From Patescibacteria group bacterium (GTDB lineage: Bacteria > Patescibacteriota > Patescibacteriia > XYB2-FULL-38-15), in assembly GCA_041737355.1 (NCBI GenBank), contig JBGSRW010000008.1, positions 24,466-88,465 on the forward strand: 64,000 bases of DNA, in the 5' to 3' direction. The position numbers and the translations under genes are program-made. Of this stretch, positions 4,045-49,640 are shown piece after piece. The first letter of the stretch is position 1. Every line of letters begins with the position of its first letter. The notes under the pieces were generated by a model. That model searched no databases, was not told the DNA's origin, and was given only the letters and a program-made list of their open reading frames with translations.

Positions 4045-4130
4045 ATCTCCGTGAAAAATCGGAGGGCCAAAGGTCAGACTGTGGATGTTCCCGGTCTGAT
4101 TTTAGTAAACGCAAATAAGGAGGTTTTCTG

Positions 4131-5384
4131 ATGGAGAACGGCAGCAAGGAGATTGTGGTTGGCAAGGAGCCGACGGCTACGGCCGAGGCGTTCCTCGAGC
4201 CGCCGAGCGAGGACGACGAGTGGTTGCTCCTGGATTTCAATCCGGCGGCGACCGAGTCCGCGCCGGCCGTGCCCGAGACGCCGAAGCCCAAGCCGCCGCG
4301 CGTCTGCGCGATCTGCCAGCACCCCTCCGGGAATTCGGTGGGCAAGATCAAGCGCGGGCGGATCGCCGAGGTCGAGCACGAAGGGATGAAGCTGCTCACG
4401 CTCGAACCAATCTGCGAACCGTGCGGCGAGAAGTTGCCGCCCGAGGAGCGGAAGAGGCTCTTCAAGGCGGGGTACCTCATCTCCCTGATCGGCGAGAAGA
4501 ACCGCGAGATGCGCGAGTTCGAGGCGGCCAAGGCCTACTGGGCTGCGGTCTTCGCCGGTACGGCAGAGCGGATGCCCGAGGCTCGCAAGACGCCCGAGGA
4601 GATGCTCTCCTGCGGGGTGCCCGGCTGCCCCCGCTGTCACGATCAGGTCGGCCACAAGGTCGGCCACTTCGTGGCGATGACGATCGGCGGCATGCCGACG
4701 CTTCTCGGGGTCTGCTCCTTCCAGGCCGCGGCCTTGGCACAGTGCGGGGTCGAAAAGAAGGGCATCGTCGTGACGACGAAGTTCTCCGTGGCCGCCCCGA
4801 TCGTCGAGGCGGAGAACGCCAGGCTCCAGGCCTTCGAGAAGGCCAAGAGTTTCTGGCTCGCCGTGGCCGAAGGCGAGGCGGCGGTCGAGGCGCGGGCCGA
4901 GAAGACCGAGCGCGGCGACATCTACCGCTGCGGCGTCCCCGGCTGCAAGTGCCGGGAGCACGGCGACCGGCCGGTCGACTACTTCGTGGTCTTGGACGGC
5001 CAGCCCGAGATGCCCATCGCGGGTGTCTGCCGATACCAGTATGCGGCGCTCCGGACCTCCGGGGTGAAGATCTTCGCCGCGAACAACAACGACGGGATGG
5101 GCCTCGCGCGGTGCGCCAAGCACCGCAACTGGCTCCTCGGCCAGGCCAAGAGGGCCATCCGCGACGTCCGGAGGCCGGACGGAATCGGCGGCGGTCTCTC
5201 CCGTTTCCGCTCGCCCGAAGAACAGGCGCGGATCCGCGAGGAGAAGCGCCGGACGTTCGAGGAGCGCGAGGCCAAGCGCCGCTCCCGGCAACTCGAGCGG
5301 GCCAAGGCCTCCTCCAGCAAGGCCGGCTGCGGCAAGAAGGCCAGCAGCAAGAAGGGCGGCAAGGGCGGCGGCAAGAAGCACTAG
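4131..5384 (+). CDS. orphan protein with three tandem Cys/His-rich modules and a Lys/Gly-rich C-terminal tail (gene A)
   Basis: SD AAGGAGG (4117-4123) sits 7 nt before the ATG. Codon third positions are GC-rich in this frame. The ORF has three repeated modules and the tail ...SSSKAGCGKKASSKKGGKGGGKKH. Confidence 0.7.
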   Translation: MENGSKEIVVGKEPTATAEAFLEPPSEDDEWLLLDFNPAATESAPAVPETPKPKPPRVCAICQHPSGNSVGKIKRGRIAEVEHEGMKLLTLEPICEPCGEKLPPEERKRLFKAGYLISLIGEKNREMREFEAAKAYWAAVFAGTAERMPEARKTPEEMLSCGVPGCPRCHDQVGHKVGHFVAMTIGGMPTLLGVCSFQAAALAQCGVEKKGIVVTTKFSVAAPIVEAENARLQAFEKAKSFWLAVAEGEAAVEARAEKTERGDIYRCGVPGCKCREHGDRPVDYFVVLDGQPEMPIAGVCRYQYAALRTSGVKIFAANNNDGMGLARCAKHRNWLLGQAKRAIRDVRRPDGIGGGLSRFRSPEEQARIREEKRRTFEEREAKRRSRQLERAKASSSKAGCGKKASSKKGGKGGGKKH

Positions 5385-5419
5385 CTGGCCGGCCGCTCTC
5401 CCACCAATTTGTTCTTTTC

Positions 5420-5542
5420 TTGGAGCAAGTAGTCTGTGCAATGCAGACACTGTTCGTCAATCACTCTAAGGTGAACGGCGACAGGATCTTGCTCCAAGTC
5501 CTTTTCCTCCAAATCAGCGTAAGTTGGTCTGGAGAAAAGGGA
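5420..5542 (+). repeat. 123-nt structured repeat, copy 1 (R1), just after the gene A stop
   Basis: Identical base for base to 6114-6236. It contains a perfect 10-bp closing helix, TTGGAGCAAG/CTTGCTCCAA, around two hairpins. A second imperfect hairpin of about 12 bp follows (5499-5542). Confidence 0.9.
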
Positions 5543-5597
5543 ATTAGCTCTTTGGCAATTTCGGCGCATAGCGCCGTAGAAAGAAAGGAGATAGTTG

Positions 5598-5930
5598 ATG
5601 GTTCAGGTTCTGATGCTGGCCCTGTTCAGCGTCGCCAAGCGCGACGAACGCGAGGCGAGCGACGAGGGCAGTGAGACCGACGCGGTCGAGCTGCCCGAGG
5701 ATTCGGTCAACTGGCGGGCGGTTCGTTGGCTGGGCGTCGCGAAGATGCCGCGCCGTCGGGGTGGTCGGGCGGCCAACCGTTGCCTTGCCGACATCCCGCC
5801 GCCACCGGTTCGTTTCTCGCGCGAAGGGTTTGACGGACTTCATTCGTGGAAGCGTCAGACTCCGGCCCGCCGTCAGTGGGCCAAGCATCTTCGGAAATCT
5901 TGGGGGCGCGGAAAGAAGGTGGAGGTATGA
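5598..5930 (+). CDS. orphan Arg-rich protein, 110 aa (gene B)
   Basis: SD AAGGAG (5585-5590) sits 7 nt before ATG 5598. Third positions are GC-rich. The stop overlaps the next start (ATGA at 5927-5930). Confidence 0.55.
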   Translation: MVQVLMLALFSVAKRDEREASDEGSETDAVELPEDSVNWRAVRWLGVAKMPRRRGGRAANRCLADIPPPPVRFSREGFDGLHSWKRQTPARRQWAKHLRKSWGRGKKVEV

Positions 5931-6106
5931 AGAAGGAGTGTCGCAAGAGCGTGCCGGAGGTCAAGACGGGAGAGGGTGTTTACATCCTCCGCGTCATGCC
6001 CCAGCCGTCCGTCTGCGCGCACGAGGCGGTCCGTCCCTCCACCCGGCCGATCATACGCTCCGCCATCAAGATCGTCGGCCAGCACGGCCGCGACTGTCTC
6101 CCATAG
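5927..6106 (+). CDS. orphan protein, 59 aa (gene C)
   Basis: ATG 5927 is preceded by GGTGGAGG and overlaps the gene B stop. Third positions are GC-rich. The ORF ends at TAG 6104-6106, directly before repeat copy 2. Confidence 0.5.
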   Translation: MKKECRKSVPEVKTGEGVYILRVMPQPSVCAHEAVRPSTRPIIRSAIKIVGQHGRDCLP

Positions 6107-6113
6107 TTTGTTC

Positions 6114-6236
6114 TTGGAGCAAGTAGTCTGTGCAATGCAGACACTGTTCGTCAATCACTCTAAGGTGAACGGCGACAGGATCTTGCTCCAAGTCCTTTTC
6201 CTCCAAATCAGCGTAAGTTGGTCTGGAGAAAAGGGA
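6114..6236 (+). repeat. 123-nt structured repeat, copy 2 (R2), just after the gene C stop
   Basis: 100% identical to 5420-5542. Weaker similarity extends upstream (CTCCCA..TTTGTTC). Confidence 0.9.
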
Positions 6237-6286
6237 TTCCAAAATTTTTTAGCCATTTTTACGGCTAGTCAGATCCCACGCAAGGG

Positions 6287-6489: not shown

Positions 6490-8220
6490 ATGAAGTGGAA
6501 AGTCGCCGAACCGATCAGCGAAGAATTCAGAAATAAATTTCCGGAGATCGATCCGGTTATTTTGCAATTACTCGCTAACCGTGGGGTAAAAACCCAGGAA
6601 CAGATTGATGAATTTCTGTATCCAGATTACGGGCCTGATATTCACGATCCGTTTTTATTTTTGGATATGGAAAAAGCGGTCGAGCGGGTTTTCCGGGCGG
6701 TGGAGAAAGGAGAAAAAATTACGGTTCATGGCGATTACGACGCCGACGGAGTTTGCTCGGCATTGATCGTAGTCAGTACGCTCGAAGCCATGGGTGCTAA
6801 AGCCGAGGTTTATCTGCCGCACCGCGAACTCGAAGGGTATGGACTGAATATGCAAACAGTTGAAGAGTTGGGGAAAAGAGGGACAAATCTTATTATTACA
6901 ACCGACTGCGGCATCAGTAATCGGGAAGAGATAAAAAGAGCGGTTGAACTTGGAATGGAAGTAATTGTCACCGACCATCATGCCGAGCCGCTTAATTTGC
7001 CCGAGGCAGCTTTGGCAATTATCAATCCCCATTTGGCGCGAGAAAAGTATCCTTTTAAGGAATTGTCCGGGGCGGGAGTAGCTTTCAAATTCGTTCAGGG
7101 GATTTTACATAAAATAAAAACAACGGCGCCAAAAATAGAATTCAGGGAAGACCCGGAGGGATTTGAAAAATGGCTTCTGGATCTTACGGCTATTGCCACG
7201 ATTGCCGACATCATGCCCCTCTTGGGCGAGAACCGGACGATCGTAAAATACGGCTTGATTGTCCTGAACAAAACCAAACGGCTGGGATTGAAAAAAATGA
7301 TTGATTCGCTGGGCTTGAACAAGGCAAAATTGCTTGACGCAAGAAACGTATCTTTTCAGATTAGTCCGCGGCTGAACGCGGCCGGCCGGATCGACCACGC
7401 CAACCAGGCCTATGAACTTTTAAAAACATCGGACGGGAACGAAGTTGATAAATTGGTCGCGGCCCTGAATAAAACCAACGAAGACAGGCAAGCGCTTTCC
7501 GAGCGCGTAACGGCCGAAGCCAAGGAGAAAATAGGAGAAGAGGTTGGCGAAAGAAAAGTTTTGTTCGCCGTGGGTAAGGGTTGGCCGATAGGTATTGTCG
7601 GATTGGTAGCCGGGAAAATAGCCGATAATTTATGGCGGCCGACTTTTATTATGGCAGAAAAAGAGGGGAACATTATGGGGTCGGGAAGGAGTATTCCGGA
7701 ATTTGATATTATGGAAGGGCTCAGGGAGGCGAAAGAATTTTTGTCACATTACGGCGGACACGCCGGAGCCTGCGGATTTACCCTGAAAAATAAAAAAGAT
7801 CTGAAGAGGTTTGAAAAGACCCTGGAGAAATTTGCTGAAAAAAAATTAGCCGGCTCGGAACTTGTCCCAAGCCTGAATATTGACTCGGAAGTTAAACTGG
7901 AAAAAATAAATTGGGAGCTTTTCGAGCTCTTGGAAAAATTTTCACCATTCGGGAAGGGGAATGAGCGGCCGAGATATTTGGGGAGGGGTTTGACGGTCGA
8001 AAGCTTTGAAGGGGTGGGAAATAATGGAAATCATTTACGCATAAATTTGAGCCACGAAAACGGCCAAAAGAAAAAATTTATAGGTTTTTGTTTTGGAAGC
8101 TGGTGCGAGAAATTAAAAGCGGGAGATAAAATTGATGTAGTTTTTGAAATTGATGTTAATGAATGGAACGGGAACAGGGAACTGCAGATGAAAATTATTG
8201 ATTTAAAACATAGCGAATAA
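6490..8220 (+). CDS. recJ: single-stranded-DNA-specific exonuclease RecJ
   Basis: 576 aa with DHH-family motifs (HGDYDADGVCS, TTDCG, VTDHH) and a DHHA1-like GGHAGACG. Confidence 0.9.
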   Translation: MKWKVAEPISEEFRNKFPEIDPVILQLLANRGVKTQEQIDEFLYPDYGPDIHDPFLFLDMEKAVERVFRAVEKGEKITVHGDYDADGVCSALIVVSTLEAMGAKAEVYLPHRELEGYGLNMQTVEELGKRGTNLIITTDCGISNREEIKRAVELGMEVIVTDHHAEPLNLPEAALAIINPHLAREKYPFKELSGAGVAFKFVQGILHKIKTTAPKIEFREDPEGFEKWLLDLTAIATIADIMPLLGENRTIVKYGLIVLNKTKRLGLKKMIDSLGLNKAKLLDARNVSFQISPRLNAAGRIDHANQAYELLKTSDGNEVDKLVAALNKTNEDRQALSERVTAEAKEKIGEEVGERKVLFAVGKGWPIGIVGLVAGKIADNLWRPTFIMAEKEGNIMGSGRSIPEFDIMEGLREAKEFLSHYGGHAGACGFTLKNKKDLKRFEKTLEKFAEKKLAGSELVPSLNIDSEVKLEKINWELFELLEKFSPFGKGNERPRYLGRGLTVESFEGVGNNGNHLRINLSHENGQKKKFIGFCFGSWCEKLKAGDKIDVVFEIDVNEWNGNRELQMKIIDLKHSE

Positions 8221-39947: not shown

Positions 39948-40814
39948 ATGCAAAAAAAGGAGATGTCTCCTGAAAGTGTGAGCGAGTGCGCTCGTCTGAC
40001 TGAAGCGGAACTGGCCAACTTGGGCGTTGTCCTTTCCGCCTACCGTTCTTTCCGAGGCGACCGGCGTCGACATATCGCCTACGTCACGATGCCGATCACG
40101 ACCGGCCGGCGGTTGCGCGACATCCTGACAACGCGCCACGCGAAGAGCGCCGCAGAACTTGCGGCCAAAATCGGCAGAGAGGCCTTTTTTGACCTCGTGA
40201 TCAGACCAAACATCGCGGAGGGAATTGCTTTTGCCGACAGAGTCGCAGCAAGGGATTCACTGCTTTGCGTTGCGCCTTCGGTGTTCAGTGCCAGGTGCTG
40301 GCAATGGTCGCAGGATGCCTACATGTCCCTTTGGTACCGCGTTCTGGGAGAAATGGCCGGAGCGCATTATCTCATGGACGGCTGGGAATACTCCGTCGGC
40401 GGCGTGAAAGAAGCGATGTTTTCCATGGCCATGCAGTGGCGCATCTTCCGGCGCTACAACATCCACAAGATGGCGCAGGCCTGGGGTCTAGAGAATTTTC
40501 ATCCCGGCATGAGCCCGCAAGCGGAAATAGCCGAGCTTGAGCGCATGTGGAGCATCCGCCTTTACGACGAACAGGGCAAGGAACTTCGCATCGATCAAAT
40601 CCTGGCGATGGTTGTTCGCGCAATCAAGGAGCTGGCAAAAAACGGCTTGCCGTACGAGGATCTGCTCGGCCCCGCCCGGAACCTGAAGGGGATGCCCATA
40701 CTGTCACCGCTTATCGGCGGCGGCAACCGGTATGACGAGCCGTTTGTTCCGGAAGTGACGGATGCGTACGTGATGGCGGCAGATGAGCTCGTGGCATTCG
40801 AGGCCGCCCATTAA
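39948..40814 (+). CDS. nucleoside 2-deoxyribosyltransferase-like (DUF4406-like) domain protein with an unknown C-terminal domain, GC-rich
   Basis: IAYVTMPITTG ... W.QDAYMSLWYRVLGEMAGAHYLMDGWEYSVGGVKEAMFSMAM fits my recollection of the DUF4406 pattern (hYhAGPhoG ... GWE.S.G...E...A). SD is AAAGGAGGGAGGG. Confidence 0.55.
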   Translation: MQKKEMSPESVSECARLTEAELANLGVVLSAYRSFRGDRRRHIAYVTMPITTGRRLRDILTTRHAKSAAELAAKIGREAFFDLVIRPNIAEGIAFADRVAARDSLLCVAPSVFSARCWQWSQDAYMSLWYRVLGEMAGAHYLMDGWEYSVGGVKEAMFSMAMQWRIFRRYNIHKMAQAWGLENFHPGMSPQAEIAELERMWSIRLYDEQGKELRIDQILAMVVRAIKELAKNGLPYEDLLGPARNLKGMPILSPLIGGGNRYDEPFVPEVTDAYVMAADELVAFEAAH

Positions 40815-43587: not shown

Positions 43588-44540
43588 TTAGCCTTTGATA
43601 ATCAGGAAGGCAACGTAAGCAATATAGATAAAAATAAAGAGCACGCCCTGCCATCGTTCAAGCAGCTTTTTTTTGCCAATAAACATAAAAGCAAAGAGAG
43701 CTAAACTTGCAGCGATGGTCATGAGAATATCGATATTGTTGCTTATACTGAAAGGAAGAGGCCGGATAATCGAGCTTACTCCAAGAATCAGAAAAATATT
43801 AAAAATATTTGAACCGACAATATTTCCGACCGCGATGTCGGCATTCTTTTTGTAAGCGGCGACTGCCGAGGTGGCCAGTTCCGGAAGCGAGGTCCCAGCC
43901 GCGACAATTGTCAGGCCGATTAACGATTCGCTGACGCCTAATGAGATTGCAAGCTGTACTGCGCCATCAACAATCCATTTTCCTCCTAAGACTAGACATG
44001 TTACACCAAGCCCAATAAGCAATAACGATTTTTGAATCGATATTTCTTTTATTGGCACCTCTTCTTCGTCGCCGCCCTTGGATATGCCGTAAATATACCA
44101 CATGAAAATAGCGAAGAATGCCAAAAGCATCAGGCCGTCGATTCTCGTTATGGCTGATGAATTAGCGTGATCTATCAGGGCGTCGTTGGCCATAAGGCCG
44201 ATAGTAATTGCCGCCAGGAGGGAAAGGGGAATTTCTTTCCAAACGGTATTTTTTTGACGGCGAGGGGAAAGATAATAGCCGAAATGCCGAGAATTAGGAA
44301 GATATTAAAAATGTTGCTGCCCAGGATGTTACCGATGGCGATGTCCGTCCGTCCCTGGGCGCTCGCGAAAATATTAACGACCATTTCCGGAGCTGAAGTC
44401 CCGAAAGCGACAATTGTTAGGCCGATCACAATAACTGGAATTTTTAATTTTTTAGCTAGAGACGAGGCTCCGTCAACCAGCCAATCCGCGCCCCTGATCA
44501 GGATTCCGAAACCGACAATAAAAAGCAGATAAGTGAGCAT
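43588..44540 (-). pseudogene. Ca2+/cation antiporter (CaCA/YrbG family) interrupted by a frameshift in an A7 tract
   Basis: Two overlapping ORFs (44175-44540 and 43588-44193) each carry an alpha-repeat (GTSAPEMVV, GTSLPELATS). The frames rejoin if one A is added to the A7 run at 44249-44255 (FPLAVKK|NTVWKEIPLSLLAAITIG). Confidence 0.75.
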
Positions 44541-45964: not shown

Positions 45965-46345
45965 TTATTTGATTTTTAGAAATGACTTAACTTTGGCGAA
46001 TAGAAGGGGATAGGTTTTCTTAATTCGCGGAGCGGACAAGACCTTCTTGATTGATACAGCGGTTCCTTTTGGAATGATGACGTTTTTTGGGAATTGGTCG
46101 CTGGTAAAATCAATTTCTTTACCGTTTGGCAGGCGATTCCAGAAGTGGGACATAAACGGCCGTTTTCTGATGACGGCGTAAAGGATTTTTCCGCCAAGTA
46201 ATTTTTGGACAACCGCAGAGGTTACCCGGCATTGGTCGGCGGCAGGATTTTTAGGATTAAACCTTCCGGTCCAGGAAGTTTCTTTGCCCCAAGAGGCCCG
46301 AAGCGCCAGACCAAGTTTTTTTTGATTTATTTTTCCAGAAGCCAT
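45965..46345 (-). CDS. hypothetical protein (YunG-like by recollection)
   Basis: 126 aa with WGKETSW..., QCRVTSAVVQKLLGGKILY and HFWNRLPNGKEIDFTSDQF. Confidence 0.5.
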   Translation of the reverse strand: MASGKINQKKLGLALRASWGKETSWTGRFNPKNPAADQCRVTSAVVQKLLGGKILYAVIRKRPFMSHFWNRLPNGKEIDFTSDQFPKNVIIPKGTAVSIKKVLSAPRIKKTYPLLFAKVKSFLKIK

Positions 46346-46361
46346 TTAAAAATATAATTAA

Positions 46362-46390
46362 TTGACCTTTAAATTTAAATTTGCTATAGT
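46362..46390 (+). promoter_or_regulatory. promoter of the GC-rich RNA gene
   Basis: TTGACC (46362-46367), a 17-nt spacer, TATAGT (46385-46390). Confidence 0.65.
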
Positions 46391-46396
46391 TTAATC

Positions 46397-46651
46397 AACT
46401 TGGAGCAGTCAGACTGGCAAGGGCTGCTCGCGCGCCGCGAAGCATGTTTCGGGCGCCAAGTTCTGCTAACCACCAGTTGCGGGGCTAAGTAGCGACGAGC
46501 GAAAAGCCTGCAATACCGCCCGCAGCGACCCGCTGAACCTCGCGGATCGCGAGCCGAGCATCCCTGCGCACCATGGGTAAAGTCCGACGTCACGTCGACG
46601 CGGTACCGTGGCTGAGCGCGAACTAATGCTCACTGGTGGTTTATTTTTTTT
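46397..46651 (+). ncRNA. unassigned GC-rich structured RNA, about 255 nt
   Basis: It has its own promoter. There is no SD-led ORF longer than 17 aa. A 5' domain is closed by AACTTGG/CCAAGTT (46398-46404 / 46456-46462). A second domain is closed by a 10-bp helix, AACCACCAGT/ACTGGTGGTT (46468-46477 / 46632-46641), followed by T8. Many GC hairpins lie inside (CTCGCG-GAT-CGCGAG, CAGCG-ACC-CGCTG, CGACG-TCA-CGTCG). Confidence 0.6.
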
Positions 46652-46670
46652 GGCTTAATTAAAATTTTTA

Positions 46671-46679
46671 TGTTATGAT
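46671..46679 (+). promoter_or_regulatory. extended -10 promoter (TGTTATGAT) of the helicase gene
   Basis: A TGnTATGAT 43 nt upstream of ATG 46722. Confidence 0.4.
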
Positions 46680-46721
46680 TTCTTAAAGAATTTTAGCAAA
46701 AATCAGGCTAAAAAGCAATTT

Positions 46722-49640
46722 ATGGCCGAGGATTTGTTGAAGGATTTAAACCAGGCGCAAAAGGAGGCGGTATCCCATGAAGAGGGGCCGCTTTTGATTG
46801 TGGCCGGCGCGGGGACAGGGAAAACAACCGTCATCACGCGGCGGCTGGCTTTTTTGATTTTGGAAAAGAAAATAAAGCCGGACGAAGTATTGGCACTCAC
46901 TTTTACGGAAAAGGCGGCCGGAGAAATGGAAGAGCGGGCCGACCAGCTTTTGCCTTACGGTTATGTTGATCTCTGGATTTCAACTTTTCATTCTTTTTGC
47001 GAGCGGATTTTAAAAGACCACGCGATCGAGATCGGTTTGCCGGGTGATTTTAAATTATTAAACCAGACCGGGCAATGGTTGCTCGTGCGCCAGAATCTGG
47101 AAAGGTTCAATCTTGATTATTACCGGCCGCTCGGCAATCCGACAAAATTTATCCATACCCTACTGAAACATTTTAGTCGGGCCAAGGATGAAGAGATCTG
47201 GCCGGAAAATTATCTTGATTACGCGGAAAATTTAAAACTTAATAAAGACAGCGCAATTGCCGAAGACAAAGACCGCCTCCTTGAAGTTGCGAGCGCCTAT
47301 CACGCTTACCAGCAATTGCTTTTGGAAAATAATGCCTTGGATTTTGGCGACCTGATAAATTATACCTTAAAACTTTTTCGTACCCGGCCGGCTATTTTGG
47401 AAAAATACCGGCAAAAGTTTAAGTATATTTTGGTCGACGAATTTCAGGATACCAATTGGGCGCAGTACGAGCTGATTAAAATGCTTGCCGCGCCCAAGAA
47501 CAATTTAACCGTGGTGGGCGACGACGATCAGTCGATTTATAAATTCCGTGGCGCCTCTATTTCCAATATTTTGCAATTTAAAAACGATTATCCGGATTGC
47601 CGAGAAATTATTATCACCGACAATTATCGCAACAAACAGAATATTCTCGATCTGGCTTATAAATTTATCAAACAAAATAACCCCAACCGGCTTGAGGCAA
47701 AATTGGGAATTGTAAAAAAGCTTGAGGCGAAGAGAGGGGGGGAGGGAATTGTTGAACATCTTCACGCCAAGACGGCCGACCAGGAGGCACGTACCGTTGC
47801 CGAAAAGATTTTGGAACTTAAAAAATCCGATAATTCTATAGGCTGGCAGGATTTTGCTATTTTGGTCCGGGCGAATAATCAGGCCGAAGCTTTCATGCAA
47901 GTTCTTGATCAATACGGAATTCCGTATCACTTTCTGGCTTCAGCCGGGCTTTATTCCAAGCCGGTGATTCTGGACATCATCGCTTATTTGAAAATGCTGG
48001 ATAATTATCACGAATCGACCGCGCTTTACAGAATTTTAAATATGCCGCTCGTCGATCTGCCTTATGACGATATTGTCGCCCTGAATTATTCTGTACGAAA
48101 AAAGAATTGGTCGCTGTATGAGGCGATGAAAAACGCCGCGGTGGTCGGAGTTTCCGGGGAAAGTTTGCGGAAAATCAATAAACTTCTCGGATTTGTTGAA
48201 CGGCATACGGGAATTGTCCGCGAACACGGCGTGAGTAAAGTGGTTTTCAAGTTTTTGGAGGATTTTAATTATTTGGCCAGTTTGACTAAAAAAGCGGAAA
48301 AAGACGATTTACGGGCGGTGGAAAAAATAAGTTATATCAATCAATTTTTAAAAAAGATAGATGACTTCGAACGGGTAAATACAGATAAATCCGTTAAAAA
48401 TTTTATTCTTGAACTTGAGATGGCGCTTGAATCCGGAGAGGAGGGATCACTGGCTTCGGAATTCGACGAGGGACCTGAAACCGTAAAAATCCTGACGGTT
48501 CACGGGGCAAAGGGTCTGGAATTCAAATATGTTTTTATTGTTAATCTAGTGGACCTTCGTTTTCCGTCTACCGACCGGAAAGAGCCGATAGAATTGCCGA
48601 ACGCCCTGGTAAAAGAAGTCTTGCCCGAGGGTGATATTCATCTTGAGGAAGAGCGTAGATTATTTTATGTCGCCGTGACTCGTGCTAAGGATGGAATATT
48701 TTTTACTTCGGCGGCCGATTACGGCGGCCAGCGGAAAAAGAAATTGTCCCGCTTCCTGGTCGAGCTTGGATTTGTCGCGCCGGAAATAAAAAATCCGACC
48801 GGCAATGTTTATTTCGACGAGGATACTGCCGTAAAGACAGAGGGCGTGGTCAAAAAAAGAATCTGGATTCCAAGCAAGTTCAGCTTTACCCAGCTTAAGG
48901 CGTTTGAAACCTGTCCGCTGCAATACAAATTCGCCCACGTGTTGGTCGTGCCGACGCGCGGTAAGTTTACTTTCAGTTTTGGGAAAACCATGCACGGGAC
49001 CTTGCAGAAATTTTTCGACCAGATAATTAAAAAAACAAATCATCAGCAGACAAGCTTGTTCGGAGAAGTTCCGGCGGAAGAAACAAACGGGTTATCGGTT
49101 GAAAGTCTTATTAAGCTTTACGATGAAAGCTGGATCGGCGATTGGTATGAAAGCAAAAGCCACGAAGAGGAATATAGGAAACTTGGCCGGGACAAACTCA
49201 AGGAATTTTATAAAATTCACGAAGGCAAATGGCCAAAAACAAAATTCCTAGAAAAGGGATTTAATCTTAAGATAGGGGATTACACGGTGCGTGGCGTGAT
49301 TGACCGGATTGACGAGATTCCCGGCGGCGTAGAAATTGTTGATTATAAAACTGGCAGCGTGCCCAAGGACGAAAAATTTTTGGATAAAGACCAGCTTTTG
49401 ATTTATCAGGCCGCAGCGAGCGAAGTATTGGGCGAAAAGCCGGCTCTTTTGAGTTATTATTATCTTGGAGCAAATCAAAAAATGTCTTTTATCGGCACGG
49501 ATGAGGAAGTCGGGGAAATAAAAGAAAAAATAATTGAAACTATCGAGGAAATTAAAAAAAGCGATTTTTCTCCCAAGCCGAGCTTGTTCAGCTGCAAGAA
49601 TTGCGATTTTAAGGATATTTGCGAACATCGAATCCTCTAA
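46722..49640 (+). CDS. UvrD/PcrA-type helicase fused to a C-terminal PD-(D/E)XK (Cas4/AddB-like) nuclease domain
   Basis: It has Walker A (AGAGTGKTT), DEFQDT and other SF1 motifs. The C-terminal region has ...CPLQYKF..., IDRID...VEIVDYKTG and CKNCDFKDIC (a 1+3 Cys pattern). Confidence 0.85.
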   Translation: MAEDLLKDLNQAQKEAVSHEEGPLLIVAGAGTGKTTVITRRLAFLILEKKIKPDEVLALTFTEKAAGEMEERADQLLPYGYVDLWISTFHSFCERILKDHAIEIGLPGDFKLLNQTGQWLLVRQNLERFNLDYYRPLGNPTKFIHTLLKHFSRAKDEEIWPENYLDYAENLKLNKDSAIAEDKDRLLEVASAYHAYQQLLLENNALDFGDLINYTLKLFRTRPAILEKYRQKFKYILVDEFQDTNWAQYELIKMLAAPKNNLTVVGDDDQSIYKFRGASISNILQFKNDYPDCREIIITDNYRNKQNILDLAYKFIKQNNPNRLEAKLGIVKKLEAKRGGEGIVEHLHAKTADQEARTVAEKILELKKSDNSIGWQDFAILVRANNQAEAFMQVLDQYGIPYHFLASAGLYSKPVILDIIAYLKMLDNYHESTALYRILNMPLVDLPYDDIVALNYSVRKKNWSLYEAMKNAAVVGVSGESLRKINKLLGFVERHTGIVREHGVSKVVFKFLEDFNYLASLTKKAEKDDLRAVEKISYINQFLKKIDDFERVNTDKSVKNFILELEMALESGEEGSLASEFDEGPETVKILTVHGAKGLEFKYVFIVNLVDLRFPSTDRKEPIELPNALVKEVLPEGDIHLEEERRLFYVAVTRAKDGIFFTSAADYGGQRKKKLSRFLVELGFVAPEIKNPTGNVYFDEDTAVKTEGVVKKRIWIPSKFSFTQLKAFETCPLQYKFAHVLVVPTRGKFTFSFGKTMHGTLQKFFDQIIKKTNHQQTSLFGEVPAEETNGLSVESLIKLYDESWIGDWYESKSHEEEYRKLGRDKLKEFYKIHEGKWPKTKFLEKGFNLKIGDYTVRGVIDRIDEIPGGVEIVDYKTGSVPKDEKFLDKDQLLIYQAAASEVLGEKPALLSYYYLGANQKMSFIGTDEEVGEIKEKIIETIEEIKKSDFSPKPSLFSCKNCDFKDICEHRIL

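Follow-up and report, generated by a model that had tools for sequence, protein, structure and literature searches.

A candidate structured noncoding RNA gene with a near-invariant core beside yunG in one lineage of Patescibacteria

Several orphan structured noncoding RNAs (ncRNAs), raiA, HEARO, ROOL, OLE and similar, have been found as GC-rich intergenic regions (GC-IGRs) in the GC-IGR screens of the Breaker laboratory (e.g. PMC11109978). The text of PMC11109978 mentions no genome from Patescibacteria or the Candidate Phyla Radiation (CPR). Our literature searches on lineage-specific ncRNAs of CPR/Patescibacteria and on YunG likewise yielded nothing relevant, and no ncRNA specific to this lineage was found described. 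We analyzed a stretch of 64,000 nucleotides (the window) from contig JBGSRW010000008.1 of a Patescibacteria group bacterium, in which a GC-rich element lies between yunG and a helicase gene. Like raiA, HEARO, ROOL and OLE, this element is a stand-alone GC-rich intergenic island, set in a genome of lower G+C, with a multi-junction fold, promoter and terminator signals, and neighbors that are uninformative about function. It is probably, with a likelihood we put at roughly 60%, an independently transcribed ncRNA gene of ~250 nt on the plus strand, belonging to a previously undescribed and narrow family in one Patescibacteria lineage.

The sequence of the window alone is not statistically compelling, and the case for the element is comparative. 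In the window, folding z-scores range from -1.2 to -2.4 for the plus strand, with the minus strand no worse, and a perfect 10-bp inverted repeat is obtained in 2.4% of shuffles of the element sequence. The element has a G+C content of 63-66%, as against a mean of 45% for the 64-kb window. Homologues were found by following yunG rather than the helicase gene, and yielded six distinct element sequences (236-361 nt), that of the window and five from related Patescibacteria metagenome contigs. Samples in which the element occurs include JGI 3300032342 (Ga0315286), 3300036982, Ga0105099, Ga0315275 and Logan SRR22388160. Every copy (6/6) adjoins the first gene of the yunG operon and is divergent from it. 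The six elements are as follows:

Window, 46398-46643: 246 nt
L096, 1146-1384: 239 nt
L100, 71-306: 236 nt
L095, 452-699: 248 nt
L086 (identical in L087, L088 and L097), 4649-4949: 301 nt
L093, 1129-1489: 361 nt

In a full alignment analyzed with MAFFT and RNAalifold, the variable arms were wrongly placed and a competing 5' fold was suggested. This alignment was replaced by an explicit helix skeleton (P1-P7) tested against each sequence, which fits all six homologues. The predicted fold consists of a 5' three-way junction (P1-P3), a 6-nt linker and a near-gapless four-way junction (P4-P7), with the following parts:

46398-46461, plus strand: 5' three-way junction, with P1 (ACUUG/CAAGU), P2 (GAGCAGUC/GGCUGCUC) and P3 (GCGCC/GGCGC plus an inner stem)
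46411-46421, plus strand: L2, the 11-nt loop of P2, AGACUGGCAAG, identical in 6/6 homologues
46462-46467, plus strand: linker J1/4, UCUGCU, invariant in 6/6
46468-46477, plus strand: 5' strand of P4, AACCACCAGU, pairing with 46632-46641, invariant in 6/6
46479-46523, plus strand: P5 arm, GCGGG/CCCGC around hairpin P5a and an asymmetric internal loop
46525-46550, plus strand: P6 arm, GCGA/UCGC around hairpin P6a
46551-46631, plus strand: P7 arm, GAGC/GCUC around a hypervariable domain with P8 (GCGC/GCGC), P9 (CCAUGG/CCGUGG) and an apical hairpin
46632-46641, plus strand: 3' strand of P4, ACUGGUGGUU, partner of the 5' strand

At the DNA level, the first long-range helix pairs AACTTGG (46397-46403) with CCAAGTT (46456-46462), and the second pairs AACCACCAGT (46468-46477) with ACTGGTGGTT (46632-46641). 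P1 starts at the predicted 5' end. The domain enclosed by P4 is 154 nt long in the window and longer in L086 and L093. The unpaired joints of the four-way junction are limited to one U (UGU in L096) and one A. P7 has the consensus GAGY/GCUC, with a C-G or U-G closing pair, and its interior takes at least three architectural forms across the six sequences. The conserved L2 loop is a candidate recognition site. L2 contains ACUGG, with which the P4 3' strand also begins and which is complementary to CCAGU of the P4 5' strand, and J1/4 repeats CUGCU of the P2 3' strand. These shared sequences may allow alternative or co-transcriptional pairings.

Across the six homologues, 98 of the 102 skeleton bases (96%) are invariant, whereas only 53% of nucleotide columns and 31% of third codon positions are invariant in yunG from the same six genomes. 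The first 90 nt of the element are 90-99% identical in pairwise comparisons, as against 72-83% for yunG. Length variation is confined to the interiors of the arms (27-37 nt for P5, 17-20 nt for P6 and 63-184 nt for P7). The frozen core does not simply reflect recent transfer of the whole element, because the same genomes differ strongly in their arms. Of the four variable positions in the skeleton, two covary (P3, C-G to U-A in L093), and the other two are G-U exchanges; the U-G pair of P2 is U-A in L093. P6a occurs as CCGC/GCGG, GUCGC/GCGAC or ACCGC/GCGGU, giving two compensatory pairs that were recovered by RNAalifold, and P5a as G(G)CU/AGC(C) in the window and L100 and as GGCC/GGCC in the other four sequences, giving one such pair. 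The total is thus four compensatory pairs, one in P3, one in P5a and two in P6a. The core helices P1, P2, P4, P5 and P6 have both strands frozen and do not covary. The helices of the six homologues together contain 326 Watson-Crick pairs and eight G-U pairs, the latter spread over three independent sites, and are free of A-C and other mismatches. This pattern favors the plus strand, because each of the eight G-U pairs would turn into an A-C mismatch if read from the minus strand. Together with the promoter geometry and the T run described below, it points with considerable confidence to the plus strand as the functional one.

The signals for transcription lie on the same strand:

46362-46390, plus strand: predicted RNA promoter, with a -35 hexamer TTGACC (46362-46367), a 17-nt spacer and a -10 hexamer TATAGT (46385-46390), 10/12 consensus matches
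46397-46651, plus strand: predicted transcript, ~250 nt, with a putative start 7-8 nt past the -10 hexamer and an end in U8
46644-46651, plus strand: U8 run, a terminator-like end preceded by TA and directly following P4

The promoter is sigma-70-like and has an extended -10 element, with TG at 46382-46383, one base ahead of the -10 hexamer. Both hexamers, the 17-nt spacing and the TG are common to all six homologues, with variants in L093 (TTGATT-17-TATAGT) and L100 (-10 hexamer TACATT). The geometry is retained in L093 even though the spacer has diverged and the left flank is a different gene. A T8 or T9 run is present in 6/6 homologues, under two unrelated downstream contexts. In L096, L100 and the window it is followed by the promoter of the helicase gene. 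In L086, L095 and L093 it is followed by the stop codon of a pentapeptide-repeat gene that runs toward it and whose last codons come from the complement of the T run. The transcript ends are predicted from the promoter and the T run.

A protein-coding gene or small open reading frame (ORF) was considered and rejected. Stop codons occur in every plus-strand frame of the element, and the only ORFs are on the minus strand (69 and 55 aa, Arg-rich/Cys-rich). L095 and L086 carry a 1-nt insertion that breaks the sole plus-strand frame running open across the 5' part, and where the window has its single ATG the other homologues have ACG. A search of 5.8 billion proteins with the translated antisense ORF found no relative. 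We take the element to be noncoding, with no conserved reading frame.

These results agree in large part with a preliminary description of the locus, made from the window alone, which had proposed a stand-alone noncoding structured RNA gene with its own promoter and terminator-like end. The promoter, both long-range helices and the T8 run are all present where that description placed them, and they and the other skeleton helices are kept in the six homologues. All six (6/6) have the 10-bp closing helix and the Y-shaped 5' domain, in which a single compensatory change, C-G to U-A, is seen. As to synteny, which it had suggested checking, the six homologues lie at the start of the yunG operon, and the element is absent from 80 helicase loci and from many yunG loci. 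The premise of an AT-rich genome was overstated, as the window has 45% G+C and contains other GC-rich islands.

No known RNA family accounts for the element. The 64-kb window contains no match to any Rfam 15 family at the gathering score, and ARAGORN detected no tRNA or tmRNA (transfer-messenger RNA) gene in it. In permissive mode (E up to 10), Rfam gave only noise for the element (E above 2) and nothing over the element in the five homologous loci. The models for RNase P, tmRNA, signal recognition particle (SRP) RNA, 6S, raiA, HEARO and ROOL were all unmatched, leaving standing the suggestion of a new family made in the preliminary description. That it saw no signs of RNase P, tmRNA or SRP RNA agrees with the Rfam 15, ARAGORN and motif results. 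The 6S, tmRNA and RNase P P1 topologies are ruled out, as the 5' and 3' ends of the element are unpaired with each other. The earlier idea of a divergent 6S-like RNA is contradicted by the topology, a three-way plus a four-way junction rather than a rod with a central bubble. For RNase P RNA, the P4-like string GGGTAAAGTCCGAC was correctly described as lacking a partner, but the string is itself unconserved (GGGUAAAGUCCGAC is absent from L086, L093 and L100). A two-piece tmRNA (ACCACCA-GUUGC-GGGG) was rejected because the sequence preceding ACCA lacks complementarity to GGGGCUA and because ACCACCA is part of helix P4 rather than of a 3' end. SRP RNA was rejected on the lack of an Rfam match, the lack of a helix 8/domain IV motif and the patchy distribution at the locus. 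On universal presence, which an SRP-type RNA would show across related genomes, the comparison covered the locus, where the element is absent from the same position in many relatives. For this reason a universal housekeeping RNA is unlikely, and the essential role first proposed is not upheld.

If the element is transcribed as predicted, transcription would end at P4 and the U8 run, acting as an intrinsic terminator, and P1 and P4 would bury both RNA ends in helices, making the RNA stable. Given the near-consensus promoter and the buried ends, a stable and abundant RNA would be predicted. This RNA would act in trans as a folded scaffold recognized by a protein or other partner, the likely contact surfaces being the invariant L2, J1/4 and the junction core. 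The frozen strands of the core helices and the invariance of L2 and J1/4 suggest recognition of sequence, and not only of shape, or dense tertiary or alternative pairings. A search for L2 targets within the window gave an uninformative result. The P7 arm is probably peripheral, as its wholesale replacement is tolerated, and the position beside yunG probably reflects inherited synteny rather than a functional link. We see an even chance that the element represents a new class of complex-folded ncRNA of an ultra-small, host-dependent CPR lineage, with a ~100-nt invariant core and a swappable arm, serving as a subunit of an unknown ribonucleoprotein (RNP) or as a ribozyme-like or ligand-binding RNA. 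Small CPR genomes are expected to retain little non-essential DNA. Orphans of this kind (240-360 nt, with a strong promoter, a near-invariant core and two junctions) have sometimes proved to be RNP subunits or catalytic or ligand-binding RNAs. The modular variation provides a ready guide for mutagenesis and structure probing; the value of the family is limited by its very narrow known distribution and by neighbors that give no functional clue.

Several points weigh against an independent plus-strand RNA gene of this kind. That an RNA is made, from which strand and between which ends, is deduced from sequence, and a trans-acting scaffold or protein-binding RNA is a best guess. The family evidence consists of six sequences from one narrow Patescibacteria clade, among which covariation is too sparse for a statistical test. 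Thermodynamic z-scores are modest, with the minus strand equal or better in 4/6 homologues, and for the conserved 5' half 96 of 500 shuffles performed as well as the observed structure. P4 is a long-range helix, unlike a classic terminator hairpin, and the patchy presence among close relatives could also indicate a dispensable or selfish element. An alternative 5' fold using J1/4 is preferred by RNAalifold and by the minimum-free-energy folds of L095 and L086. The changes in L093 agree better with the Y-shaped 5' fold; covariation cannot decide between the alternative pairings, because all the bases concerned are invariant.

The immediate surroundings of the element in the window are as follows:

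45965-46345, minus strand: yunG (Pfam YunG, E 9e-27; ATG at 46345)
46351-46379, minus strand: weak promoter-like site TTTAAA-17-TATATT, a consensus match only (9/12), outside the RNA
46722-49640, plus strand: UvrD/PcrA-type helicase with a PD-(D/E)XK nuclease domain

The 376-nt interval between yunG and the helicase gene houses the promoter, the GC-rich element, both long-range helices and the T run. Over all loci, the flanking genes encode YunG, a GNAT acetyltransferase, a PD40-repeat protein, the UvrD-type helicase, DciA, a pentapeptide-repeat protein and a methyltransferase. The association with yunG in 6/6 copies makes a functional minus strand the most serious rival, although an unlikely one: the element would then act in cis within the mRNA of the yunG operon, as a structured leader or an intercistronic regulatory RNA. 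All copies do lie directly upstream of the start of this operon. In L086, L095 and L093 the element is located between the co-directional pentapeptide-repeat gene and yunG, which are fused in one operon where the element is absent, and the z-scores given above would fit a minus-strand fold at least as well in four of the six homologues. By contrast, the G-U pairs would become A-C mismatches, a type not seen on the plus strand, and the conserved promoter and T8 run are on the plus strand, such that the minus-strand version would begin with A8. There is no terminator-like structure or sequestered ribosome-binding site ahead of yunG. Furthermore, the window has no minus-strand promoter-like site to the right of the element (to position 47000). 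The site at 46351-46379 lies on the yunG side of the element, back-to-back with the RNA promoter, and could drive yunG with little or no leader. A riboswitch or cis-acting leader is thus disfavored for the minus strand, despite the constant downstream position of yunG. It was rejected for the plus strand, downstream of which three loci have the helicase gene, itself preceded by a conserved promoter, and the other three a convergent gene.

The second rival is improbable, and somewhat more so than a minus-strand leader. It holds that the element is non-functional or selfish GC-rich DNA, a relic of horizontal acquisition or a small mobile cassette with promoter and T-run signals arising by chance. 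In its favor is the distribution of the element. A helicase-anchored search yielded 80 loci, nearly all labeled as Patescibacteria/CPR or mislabeled bins thereof, the closest with 80-90% amino-acid identity and one from a Candidatus Falkowbacteria metagenome-assembled genome; the element is absent from all 80 (blastn, nhmmer and a covariance model). In the four closest, upstream homology begins exactly at window position 46647/46648, at the end of the RNA, and a different divergent gene abuts the homologous block. The element is also missing at the locus in eight other yunG lineages (L081-L085, L089-L092, L094, L098, L099 and L101-L104), and RNA-positive genomes are scattered across the yunG tree. 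Genomes without it at the yunG locus include OZ246416.1 and Ga0265297_10000039. L095 is a mosaic, with a P5 arm resembling that of L086 and P6-P7 arms resembling those of the window. The presence of other GC-rich orphan islands in the window, and of the element at a variable hot spot, antisense and splitting an operon, would also suit selfish or relic DNA. However, the skeleton is 96% invariant, against 53% of yunG columns, and the compensatory changes, together with the insertions at helix tips, indicate that an RNA fold has been under selection. The element is always present as a single copy at one site, without terminal repeats or target duplications. Two conserved 19-22-mers had no match (0) in viral contigs, and no blastn match was obtained in phage and plasmid collections. 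A pattern scan of metagenomes returned at least three contigs from a collection that is incomplete (L088 and L100 fit the pattern, yet were unreturned).

The interval between the yunG operon and the helicase gene (window 45965-46721; loci L081-L104) is a variable hot spot with five alternative contents: the RNA alone; the RNA with genes for a pentapeptide-repeat protein and a methyltransferase; no RNA, but a pentapeptide-repeat gene fused to the yunG start; a 95-aa ORF; and fn3-domain genes. The helicase promoter/leader block at 46648-46718 (TTTTGGCTTAATT...TATGTTATGATTTCTTAAAGAATTTTAGCA) displays 85-91% identity in the four closest relatives compared, for which the helicase has 80-90% amino-acid identity. 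The block recurs in other related loci, a degree of conservation unusual for intergenic DNA.

According to a third rival, the RNA is part of a retroelement or guide RNA, retron-like (msr-msd), in which P4 would correspond to a1/a2 and P7 to a template or specificity module, with the protein encoded elsewhere. The 10-bp inverted repeat does flank the conserved P5 and P6 and the long variable P7 hairpin, and the invariant P4 is similar to the flanking repeats a1/a2, which is a resemblance only. This possibility is very doubtful: no gene for a reverse transcriptase, IscB, TnpB, an IS110-type recombinase or Cas flanks any of the loci, retron RNAs have no 70-nt 5' domain, the Rfam models, including HEARO, were unmatched, and the window contains no repeat or near-copy of the RNA elsewhere. 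A retron msr-msd and a guide RNA (IscB/TnpB omega RNA or IS110 bridge RNA) were rejected on these grounds, namely the lack of a reverse transcriptase and of a cognate nuclease or recombinase, respectively. Finally, a very divergent SRP, 6S, RNase P RNA or tmRNA, suggested by the order of the 5' domain and the long-range closing helix and by the resemblance of the GGGUAAAGUCCG string of the window to one RNase P RNA P4 strand, is largely refuted by the Rfam and ARAGORN searches, the absence of that string from three homologues, the unpaired ends and the gaps in the distribution among close relatives.

Other regions of the window also have an unusual composition or structure. A very GC-rich island at 4100-6240, in which 150-nt windows reach 75% G+C against the mean of 45%, carries orphan ORFs without a Pfam match at 4131-5384 (plus strand, 417 aa) and 5671-6126 (plus strand). 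A perfect 126-nt direct repeat (5417-5542 and 6111-6236, 694 nt apart) flanks a 568-nt GC-rich segment of this island directly upstream of recJ (6490-8220), and could correspond to a duplication, an insertion or an assembly artefact. Another compositionally foreign gene, an orphan 288-aa ORF with ~60-65% G+C and no Pfam match, is located at 39948-40814. The Na+/Ca2+ exchanger gene (43588-44540, minus strand) is split into overlapping ORFs at 43588-44193 (201 aa) and 44175-44540 (121 aa), whereas it is a single gene of ~318 aa in relatives, the split in the window being a frameshift, a pseudogene or a sequencing error.

An independently transcribed plus-strand RNA remains our favored explanation, and it may be compared with known systems as follows. 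The element differs from raiA, HEARO, ROOL and OLE in having no sequence or structure match to them, in its smaller size (236-361 nt) and in being represented by six variants from one Patescibacteria lineage. Like 6S RNA, it is a stand-alone gene that has a strong promoter and lacks coding potential. As in a retron msr-msd, a conserved hairpin region and then a long variable hairpin lie between its inverted repeats, but it has an additional invariant 70-nt 5' domain and its own U8 end. The large SRP RNAs of Bacillus and archaea have a 5' three-way junction (the Alu domain) that a short helix closes, followed by a helix 5 strand that pairs with the 3' end. Although the interior of the element is a four-way junction with a hypervariable arm, and many relatives lack the element at the locus, the order of its parts, a 5' Y domain and then a long-range closing helix, is in general terms that of the Alu domain and helix 5 of these RNAs.
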